Shown here in pieces: positions 6,001-7,496 of a stretch of 7,496 nucleotides of DNA. Source of the DNA: a virus (lineage: Duplodnaviria; Heunggongvirae; Uroviricota; Caudoviricetes); IMG/VR virus record IMGVR_UViG_2695420687_000013, positions 1 to 7,496 of that record; one strand, given 5' to 3'. Made by a program: the position numbers. The first letter of the stretch is position 1, and each line of letters begins with the position of its first letter.

Positions 6001-7496
6001 GCAGCATGAAGATGATAAAAACGGACTGGAAATTTTTGCTGGTCTGGCTGATTCCGTTTTTATGGGTGGTTGCCCGGTTAATTACTGCTATTAAGGGGTA
6101 AAGATGTCAGACAAACTCATAATGCTGGCGAAGGGCCTTTGTGTAATCGTCGGTATTTCATTTTCACTAATGCTGGTTGTTCTTTTTCTTTCCATAACCT
6201 GGATGGCGTTGACTTCGGCAGGGCTGGTGGGGTGAGCATAAACCGAATGCTTTCCGCGTTTACCGTTATTCTGCTGGTGGTCTGTGGTGCGCTTAGTCTG
6301 GGGCTGAATCATTACCGCGATAACGTCATCACCTACAAAGCGCAGCGCGATAAAAAAGCCAGAGAGCTGGAGCTGGCAAACGCAACCATTACTGATATGC
6401 AGGTGCGCCAGCGCGATGTTGCTGCGCTCGATGCAAAATACTCGAGGGAATTAGCCGATGCGAGAGCTGAAAATGAAACTCTGCGTGCTGATGTTGCCGC
6501 TGGTCGTAAGCGCCTGCGGATCAACGCCACCTGCTCCGGTACCGTGCGTGAAGCCACCGGCACCTCCGGCGTGGATAATGCAACCGGCCCCCGACTGGCA
6601 GACACCGCTGAACGGGATTATTTCATCCTCAGAGAACGGTTGATGACAATGCAGAAGCAGCTGGAAGGGGCACAGGACTATATCCGCACTCAGTGCCTGA
6701 ACTAAGTTTTGCTGATGCGCCGTATCGTCGCTGTATTCCCGCATTAACAGAGACCGCAGCCCGACCGGGAGACTCCTCTTCGCGAGTGTGCGGGGATAAT
6801 CAAAAACGATACACACCGGGGTTTACCGCGTTAACGGAGCGCGGCGTTGCCCCTCATAGTCGCCTGTCCGGTGCGATGGTGGAAGAAGCCGGACGATGTG
6901 TTACCTCGCAAGCCCTGTTATGTGTCTGATTTGTGATTTAAGTCGGATAATTGTCGTTGCCATCAAGCAGAGGATTGATGACCGACAGGGTGGCATTGTT
7001 AGAATAAGACTTATTCTTATCTGTGCCGGGAATGAAAATGAAAAGAAATCTTCCGTTAATTATTTTGTTGTCTTCTCTGGTTATGGGCTGTACGCAACAT
7101 AAAACAGATATGCCCCGACAGTTGGTTAAGGCATTACCACAATATCCGGCCTATGCAGCGGCAAATTATATAAAGGGACGGGTTGATGTGAAGTTTGATA
7201 TTGGTGCTGATGGTACTGTCACCCGAATTGAGTTTATCCGTTCAGAGCCGCACCATCTGTTTGATGAGCAGGTTGTAAAGGCGATGGCAAAATGGCGATT
7301 TGAGAAGGATAGGCCGCGTAAAGGCGTGAAGAAAACGTTTATCTTTAGTCCTTCTGCACCCTGATTATTTCATCAGAAATTAATTATCACTCTGTTGTTA
7401 TTCTGTACATTCCGGCTGGGTAAGTCTTGTTCCGCCGGGTATGAATCTCCTGCTGGACGAACGCAGTTACGATACAGAAGATGGAATGAAGTTCAT

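Follow-up and report, generated by a model that had tools for sequence, protein, structure and literature searches.

The window analysed here is a stretch of 7,496 nucleotides (nt), corresponding to positions 1 to 7,496 of the IMG/VR virus record IMGVR_UViG_2695420687_000013 (Caudoviricetes), and close to its right end lies a gene for a small lipoprotein whose mature part is predicted, both by sequence profiles and by structure modeling, to adopt the fold of the C-terminal domain of TonB. Lipoproteins of the same architecture are found in prophages and at chromosomal sites across the Enterobacterales, and the majority of the divergent members studied have a Fur box ahead of the start codon. 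As a tentative reading, to which we give somewhat less than even weight, this gene could be an iron-linked moron whose product presents an outer-membrane-tethered TonB domain that binds Ton boxes without energizing them. The structural part of this interpretation is supported by the analyses given below, while its functional part appears plausible by analogy with known systems; an operator function of the palindrome preceding the gene seems partly supported for the window allele, and the link to iron appears strong for the family.

A lipoprotein with a predicted TonB C-terminal domain

The open reading frame (ORF) extends from 7023 to 7364 on the plus strand and contains in-frame ATG codons at 7032 and 7038, which would give products of 110 and 108 amino acids (aa) respectively. 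A preliminary description of this stretch had proposed a 110-aa lipoprotein; the lipoprotein ORF is present and does yield 110 aa from ATG 7032, but ATG 7038 is the likelier start, because a Shine-Dalgarno-like GGGA read from the sequence (7028-7031, plus strand) is spaced 6 nt ahead of it and because every homologue begins with MK(R/K). The 108-aa form is also the start chosen in RefSeq (WP_000828070.1, "TonB family protein"), and with it the coding sequence, including the stop codon, spans 7038-7364 (plus strand).

Profile searches with this product recovered Pfam PF03544 (TonB_C; E=5.5e-15, 56 bits against a cut-off of 24.6) and TIGR01352 (56.5 bits against a cut-off of 27.1), and TonB_C and TonB_2 were its only Pfam matches. 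A phmmer search of PDB sequences aligned 79 residues (28-106 in the 110-aa numbering) with the C-terminal domains of the E. coli and Salmonella TonB proteins (1u07, 2gsk, 2grx; E ~1e-16). The AlphaFold2 model, built from a family alignment of 29 sequences, has a mean predicted local distance difference test score (pLDDT) of 86, with block means of 95-98 over residues 31-100, and is predicted to form a compact three-stranded sheet (E47-55, E60-70 and E94-103) set against two helices (H38-42 and H76-83), with the last strand exposed. Its top Foldseek matches are 1u07_A and 2gsk_B, the latter being TonB in the BtuB:TonB complex, with a root-mean-square deviation (rmsd) of 1.0 Å and a template modeling score of 0.92 (normalised to the target). 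Across the available structures of the TonB C-terminal domain (approximately residues 153-239 in E. coli; 1u07, 2gsk, 2grx, 1xx3), which belongs to the same Pfam and TIGRFAM domain families, Foldseek gives 37-42% identity (E. coli, Salmonella) and an rmsd of 1.0-1.4 Å. Both the TonB_C profile search and the structure prediction, which the preliminary description had named as checks of its proposal that the mature part resembles the C-terminal domain of TonB, thus match that domain. On the combined evidence of Pfam, TIGRFAM, phmmer, AlphaFold2 and Foldseek the predicted fold occupies residues 26-104 (7113-7349, plus strand), leaving a tether of about 8 residues after the lipidated cysteine.

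The last strand of the model (residues 94-103), the counterpart of the strand with which TonB pairs with the Ton box, is present. In the phmmer alignment (TonB numbering) the YP motif is retained, as are the TonB aromatics F180, F202, W213 and F230, with Y215 replaced by F. Judged from its sequence, the lipoprotein is not a TonB energy transducer, because its scores of 49-73 bits against the NCBIfam TonB equivalogs (PRK10819) fall below their cut-offs of 265-448, because it is only 108 aa long, and because it has a cleavable lipoprotein signal at its N-terminus. Unlike TonB, it has no N-terminal transmembrane anchor, proline-rich rod or ExbB-ExbD coupling, and its predicted lipid anchor would lie in the opposite, outer membrane. 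The BFVD library of viral structures contained no match at E up to 0.001, and the fold therefore appears to be rare among catalogued viral proteins.

The N-terminal segment (7038-7091, plus strand) comprises the predicted lipoprotein signal peptide MKRNLPLIILLSSLVMG and the codon of the lipobox Cys18 (7089-7091), with Thr at position +2. The lipobox LVMGC fits the PROSITE pattern PS51257 (Cys at position 15-35), with K2 and R3 among the first seven residues; all 29 aligned family members pass this pattern and the Cys is invariant in all of them (29/29). The residue at +2 is S, T, A, V or G across the same 29 members and is never Asp, which at this position is the signal for Lol avoidance. The product is accordingly predicted to be a Lol-sorted lipoprotein of the outer membrane, and the sorting that had earlier been proposed from Thr +2 agrees with the lipobox, with the lack of Asp at +2 and with the same pattern throughout the homologues. 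In the 29 aligned members the Cys and the YP motif lie a tightly held 16-22 residues apart, and the domain must therefore sit near the outer-membrane leaflet.

Family distribution and upstream regulatory sites

Alleles of the window type, which share at least 96.7% nucleotide identity among the matches listed, are found in 414 of 5426 complete E. coli genomes and in the Stx1a-converting phages JLK-2012 and Lys8385Vzw. A scan of IMG/VR recovered 220 viral stretches that encode a relative, and in the best 80 of the 220 the protein is 98-100% identical to that of the window. A second allele with 71% protein identity is carried by the classical phage 21, whose depositors annotated the product as "TonB C-terminal domain protein", and by 1221 of the 5426 genomes, including ABU 83972, ATCC 25922 and BEN2908; the two counts were made allele by allele and the genome sets may overlap. 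The two alleles differ with a ratio of nonsynonymous to synonymous divergence (dN/dS) of 0.13 at a dS of 1.4, and by this comparison the lipoprotein is under purifying selection. The gene has a G+C content of 43.8%, against 51.5% in the flanking prophage DNA. In phage 21 (locus L003, OL657228; 21967-25416 and 41068-42168) the iron/manganese ABC importer genes sitABCD, bor and the TonB_C lipoprotein gene occur together, and in ABU 83972 the gene stands right after iss, in a prophage that also has an ompC-like porin gene. Older records refer to a "tonB-like membrane protein encoded within prophage", and no family of the PADLOC-DB 2.0 defence models matched at E up to 0.01. The gene is therefore already annotated and very common; what appears new, being unreported in the searchable literature, is the family-wide association with Fur boxes and the existence of chromosomal relatives.

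Profile searches recovered lipoproteins of approximately 104-132 aa with the same architecture in genomes of Klebsiella, Raoultella, Erwinia and Pantoea and in Salmonella-labelled genomes, and further members came from Serratia, Sodalis and Pseudescherichia when GTDB species representatives were scanned; short proteins combining a lipoprotein signal with TonB_C occur further afield too. The invariant or nearly invariant positions (P34, Y36, P37, Y39, A40, G47, G59, S69, P71, L74, F75, D76, W86, R87, E89 and P93) are a mixture of the TonB-like core and of family-specific residues, namely a Tyr in place of TonB R166 and SEPxHLFD in place of AKPANMFE. Chromosomal copies lie beside lacZ-lacI in Raoultella and Klebsiella species, between an ABC transporter operon and araA in Erwinia, in the ycgN/dsbB interval in Serratia and at unrelated sites in Pantoea. 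Prophage copies in the same post-lysis slot as in the window are found in the K. pneumoniae phage ST13-OXA48phi12.4 and in a Sodalis prophage. From these sequence comparisons the family is not phage-specific but is distributed over prophages and ordinary chromosomal sites across the Enterobacterales. A recent capture of the 3' end of E. coli tonB was considered as an origin of the gene and is ruled out by the invariant motifs of the family and by the chromosomal members in other genera. A chromosomal copy of Raoultella planticola and the Klebsiella phage share only 561 base pairs (bp), comprising the gene and about 220 nt upstream of it, at 85.6% identity; this isolated match implies that promoter and gene move together as a cassette.

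For each of 17 divergent members, 90-150 nt of upstream sequence was scored against the 19-bp Fur consensus and the 7-1-7 Fur motif TGATAATnATTATCA. In 11 of the 17 a Fur box with at least 12 of 14 matches to the latter was found about 17-65 nt before the start codon. The score was 14/14 in Klebsiella sp. R390 and Raoultella lignicola, 13/14 in Klebsiella sp. I138, Serratia grimesii, Sodalis sp. RH21 and one Pantoea genome, and 12/14 in Ca. Pantoea formicae, Ca. Pantoea bathycoeliae, Erwinia typographi and copy 2 of Raoultella planticola. At most 2 in every 10,000 positions within these loci score 12/14 or higher, and the upstream regions of different genera cannot be aligned with one another, so that several independent occurrences of the Fur box are indicated. 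The Sodalis copy with a Fur box is a prophage gene in the same slot between lysis and terminase genes. From these upstream sequences we infer that the family is, as a rule, controlled by Fur. In a Pantoea sp. metagenome-assembled genome (locus L024) a gene for a 360-aa pore-forming colicin (Pfam Colicin, E=2.2e-33; 2196-3278, minus strand), followed by an integrase fragment, is located 1.7 kb upstream of a TonB_C lipoprotein gene with a Fur box; this is a single case and may be a coincidence.

Upstream of the window allele, a scan for sigma-70 promoters pointed to a predicted site with 9 of 12 consensus positions, consisting of the -35-like hexamer ATGACC (6978-6983, plus strand; a consensus match only), a spacer of 16 nt and the hexamer TAGAAT (7000-7005), which is preceded by TG and thus forms part of the predicted extended -10 element TGtTAGAAT (6997-7005, plus strand); transcription would start near 7012. 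The perfect 8-1-8 palindrome that had been described as overlapping the predicted -10 was confirmed at 7001-7017 (AGAATAAG-A-CTTATTCT), where it covers both the -10 and the predicted start of transcription and is a candidate operator. Centred on the same nucleotide, 7009, is a Fur-box-like 19-mer (7003-7021, minus strand), GATAAG AATAAG t CTTATT T, with hexamers in the forward-forward-x-reverse order; all three are in phase and each has the same change of T to G. This 19-mer matches the consensus GATAATGATAATCATTATC at 13 of 19 positions, which is the top match in the whole window (P ~0.02-0.03 from shuffles of the upstream region), and the 7-1-7 motif at 9 of 14 positions only. The phage 21 allele has no Fur-like site in its upstream region (10/19 and 7/14 respectively).

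Whether the palindrome has a regulatory function can be weighed from these observations. The earlier suggestions that it is a repressor site and that it partially matches a Fur box hold in part: it overlaps the best Fur match of the window in a place equivalent to that of the Fur boxes of the homologues, and the iron link is strong in the divergent homologues, but the match itself is weak and the right arm is missing from the phage 21 allele, lying within a 13-nt indel. The segment ATTGTyAGAATAAGAC, comprising the extended -10 and the left arm, is conserved between the two alleles amid upstream DNA that is far less conserved; as this arm coincides with the extended -10, its conservation is ambiguous and may reflect the promoter rather than an operator. 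Among 68 near-identical copies on viral contigs the palindrome is mostly unchanged, and five have an uncompensated C-to-T change in the right arm. A weak Fur operator is possible, at a probability that we place a little under one half, while an operator of some other repressor seems unlikely. A comparable, somewhat less than even, chance is given to the palindrome having no operator function: the 13-nt insertion would then mirror the -10 by chance, with either a constitutive promoter or expression chiefly through late transcription. The indel, the uncompensated arm mutations and the 9/14 score agree with this, as does the number of perfect inverted repeats with 8-nt arms and a spacer of up to 10 nt in the entire window, where two were seen and 1.4 are expected from shuffles. 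It is countered by the low probability of such a repeat in the 100 nt before the start codon (P ~0.009, from shuffles of the region and post hoc), by the in-phase NATAAG hexamers of the best Fur 19-mer in the window and by the strong Fur boxes at the same position in the homologues.

An RNA hairpin or terminator was rejected as an explanation of the palindrome, given its 1-nt spacer, a stem of at most 7 bp made almost entirely of A-U pairs, the lack of a T-run and a scan that found no terminator. Within the lipoprotein gene an antisense sigma-70 promoter-like site points towards the palindrome (7165-7192, minus strand; TTCACA, 16 nt, TATAAT; 11/12); its TATAAT coincides with conserved Asn-Tyr-Ile codons and may be incidental. 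A precedent for iron control of a moron is said to be stx1AB, for which Calderwood and Mekalanos reportedly described in 1987 an iron-repressible promoter in a lambdoid prophage; set beside it, Fur control of the TonB_C gene is a prediction, strong in the homologues and weak in the window allele.

Possible functions of an outer-membrane-tethered TonB domain

In the reading that we tentatively favor, the gene would be a self-contained moron in which a single coding sequence follows its own promoter of the extended -10 type and a possible operator responsive to iron. The product would be exported and lipidated at Cys18, and its short tether of about 8 residues would hold the TonB C-terminal-domain fold at the periplasmic face of the outer membrane. 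Expression would accompany iron limitation, a state in which TonB-dependent receptors are plentiful, an assignment that is made for the family because a Fur box typically precedes its members; the same direction as the late operon would allow transcription after induction as well. By beta-strand augmentation, as in TonB, the tethered domain would pair with Ton-box strands exposed on ligand-loaded receptors and on group B colicins as they enter, and having neither a membrane anchor nor ExbBD coupling it would leave the receptors without energy. Competition with TonB could then damp the TonB-dependent entry of phages (T1, phi80), colicins and microcins at a cost to siderophore uptake. That the outcome would be inhibitory is what we infer from these steps. 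In a broader and more doubtful form of this proposal, enterobacteria and temperate phages would share a class of iron-regulated, outer-membrane-anchored paralogues of the TonB C-terminal domain that has gone unrecognised; these would slow TonB-dependent import in general, whatever the receptor, and phages would spread them as a 0.5-kb cassette of promoter and gene.

The individual elements of this mechanism have counterparts in the literature. When a receptor is loaded with ligand, its Ton box joins the TonB sheet as a parallel strand (beta-augmentation; dissociation constant ~9 µM), and colicins and phages are known to exploit TonB-dependent receptors (PMC5413942). According to PMC9841981, overexpression of a periplasmic TonB domain interferes with iron import through receptors (citing Howard 2001), and a Ton-box pentapeptide lowers killing by colicins and infection by phi80 (citing Tuckman 1992). 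The periplasmic TonB fragments of Howard et al. (2001) and the pentapeptide ETVIV of Tuckman and Osburne (1992) would thus act by the same competition at the contact between TonB and the Ton box as proposed here; these tools are laboratory constructs, soluble and overexpressed, whereas the lipoprotein is encoded by a natural gene, with a predicted lipid tether and its own regulation.

Certain proteins of phages, i.e. Cor (phi80, N15, HK022) and Llp (T5), are likewise small lipoproteins of the inner leaflet of the outer membrane, from where they target a TonB-dependent receptor on its periplasmic face (10.64898/2026.03.26.714494; PMC11436027). The window lipoprotein has no relationship to them in sequence or fold; Cor and Llp are specific for FhuA and occur in phages that use FhuA, whereas it would act generically via Ton boxes. 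It may work like Cor and Llp without being a member of their group.

Several considerations weigh against a decoy of this kind. The equivalent of TonB R166 is an invariant Tyr, and the invariant SEPxHLFD motif suggests a specialised partner. The equivalent of TonB Q160 is Leu in the window protein and is variable across the family; however, a Q160L variant of TonB is said to have been functional in the hands of Heller et al. in 1988, and so the replacement would not be fatal to a decoy. The genetics of TonB Q160 by Cadieux and Kadner (1999) reportedly put the domain's N-terminal portion beside the Ton box, and a short outer-membrane tether at the N-terminal end would therefore be geometrically compatible with such a contact. 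For the chromosomal homologues, an inhibitor of iron uptake that is derepressed by Fur precisely under iron scarcity would be a paradox, and the micromolar affinity for the Ton box together with the numerous receptors would require a high copy number. Frameshifted alleles without the last strand are common (e.g. P0012, with 130 member sequences), the phage 21 allele lacks the palindrome, and a search for functional studies of the gene found none in the searchable literature. Finally, the C-terminus of the phage 21 tail-tip protein is lambda-J-like and not of the FhuA/Cor type, and no cor gene is annotated in that phage.

The last point also bears on self-exclusion, by which a carrier phage that uses a TonB-dependent receptor would protect its own host; this possibility was rejected as unsupported on account of the lambda-J-like tail tips and the lack of an annotated cor in phage 21, and any exclusion would therefore be aimed at other phages and at bacteriocins. 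Records of phi80, HK022 and N15 were absent among 40 spread-sampled rows of the 251 matching records. As a speculation, the sitABCD genes of phage 21, encoding a TonB-independent importer, could offset the cost to TonB-dependent uptake.

The Fur boxes before most chromosomal homologues would equally fit a gene that is useful in iron starvation, and the product could accordingly be a positive accessory of iron uptake, which docks the TonB C-terminal domain at the outer membrane as a heterodimer or holds Ton boxes ready, the prophage copy being a moron for fitness or virulence. The pairing of the gene with sitABCD in phage 21 and its position next to iss in ABU 83972 are in line with this, and the alignment retains the aromatics that in TonB can form dimers of the C-terminal domain, a property reportedly described by Ghosh and Postle in 2005. 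We nevertheless consider such an accessory unlikely: truncated alleles are frequent, TonB transport in E. coli K-12 works without such a protein, and to our knowledge there is no precedent for a TonB cofactor of this type. For fragments of the TonB C-terminal domain that lack an anchor, the only published results are of inhibition (PMC9841981).

The family-specific invariants that differ from TonB, i.e. the Tyr for R166 and SEPxHLFD for AKPANMFE, could instead reflect a binding module repurposed for a ligand other than the Ton box, for instance peptidoglycan, a substrate or a protein of the periplasm or outer membrane, in a factor for the envelope or of the serum-resistance type. The TonB-like C-terminal domain of FusB binds ferredoxin (9hi3), and the slot is also used by the lambdoid envelope morons bor and iss. 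This alternative is likewise regarded as improbable, since the neighborhood offers no hint of another ligand, the chromosomal copies being orphans in unrelated contexts, and since the link to Fur points to the physiology of iron and TonB.

Genomic setting and implications

The prophage genes of the window are all on the plus strand, in the order NanS-p-like esterase (5' truncated), P21-type holin, DUF1327/YdfR-family protein, lysozyme of the signal-anchor-release type, KilAC antirepressor, Rz/Rz1, a 78-aa ORF and the lipoprotein gene. The i-spanin gene Rz is found at 6250-6705 (plus strand; Pfam Phage_lysis, E=9e-50), where 6250 is, in our reading, the first ATG before the transmembrane segment, and the o-spanin gene Rz1 is embedded in it at 6458-6643 (plus strand; Pfam Rz1, E=1.7e-21). 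These Pfam matches confirm the location downstream of Rz given in the preliminary description. A scan found no terminator-like site between Rz and the lipoprotein gene, and with the genes co-directional the latter is therefore predicted to be read from the late transcript too. In complete prophages ylcI (convergent), an HNH endonuclease gene and the terminase genes come next, and the lipoprotein gene thus lies in the usual moron slot, after the lysis cassette and before the terminase genes.

The analogy to the position of bor in lambda, which had also been drawn, applies to the neighborhood after Rz but is approximate, as phage 21 and ABU 83972 have bor or iss and the TonB_C gene side by side. 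Bor and Iss belong to the same class of small outer-membrane lipoproteins and in both of these genomes are encoded immediately upstream of the TonB_C gene. They are, however, unrelated to its product in sequence and linked to serum resistance, not to TonB, and bor and iss lie on the opposite strand whereas the TonB_C gene is co-directional with the late operon.

The best PHROG match of the protein, PHROG 1267 (E=1.9e-42), is labelled "Rz-like spanin", while its members are TonB_C lipoproteins. Together with the position just after Rz/Rz1 and with older entries reading "partial" or "truncated tonB-like membrane protein", this label might suggest an accessory of lysis or a decaying, functionless fragment of tonB, but we deem either very improbable. 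Rz and Rz1 proper are encoded separately, further upstream, and match Pfam families of their own, and the lipoprotein has a predicted globular TonB_C fold, with TonB_C and TonB_2 as its matches and none to Phage_lysis or Rz1; the spanin label therefore appears to be wrong, an annotation by adjacency. Homologues at non-phage chromosomal sites behind Fur boxes argue against both ideas, and the low dN/dS, the invariant lipobox and the confidently modeled globular fold argue against decay.

Additional features of the window concern its mosaic nature. The antirepressor gene between the lysozyme gene and Rz (5314-6009, 231 aa) encodes a KilAC domain (Pfam ANT, E=2.7e-28; PHROG 63); in the near-identical prophage of strain Z1322HEC0009 its place is taken by two small hypothetical genes, which suggests that the lysis cassette is a mosaic. 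The NanS-p-like esterase gene (1863-3608; SASA and DUF6645) is about 35 codons short relative to the 616-aa homologue of Z1322HEC0009 owing to the left junction. The window as such looks like a scaffold or chimera (1-1780 and 7445-7496), with both junctions cutting genes: a yicL-like gene, cut short and 83% identical to E. coli yicL, lies at 1052-1764, single Ns are scattered over 1758-1777, the prophage segment begins inside the esterase gene, and the last 52 nt, after 7445, match the interior of a chromosomal hyuA at 96%. In E. coli yicL and hyuA are far apart. The host was probably not a typical E. coli. Just after Rz (6722-6812) there are nested inverted repeats, GTATCGT/ACGATAC and TATTCCCGCAT/GTGCGGGGATA, which are conserved with phage 21 (41548-41638 of locus L003); a structured RNA was rejected as their explanation (fold z = -0.7, and no covariation between the two sequences), and no Rfam family matched anywhere in the window at E up to 1.

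Carriers of the gene include the Stx1a phages of Shiga toxin-producing E. coli, prophages with iss in extraintestinal pathogenic E. coli and the classical phage 21. Siderophores, vitamin B12, many phages, group B colicins, microcins and siderophore-antibiotic conjugates enter cells chiefly through TonB-dependent receptors. Should the lipoprotein assist uptake instead, it would supply a part of the TonB system that has been missed in 50 years of work. If it is indeed a lipid-tethered TonB decoy, it would represent a new and generic mode of exclusion that acts on the shared Ton box and not on one receptor as in the case of Cor and Llp, and it would offer protection from TonB-dependent phages, group B colicins and microcins just when iron starvation fills the outer membrane with receptors. 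As its two alleles occur in 414 and 1221, respectively, of 5426 complete E. coli genomes, such a decoy would also bear on phage therapy and on cefiderocol-type drugs.

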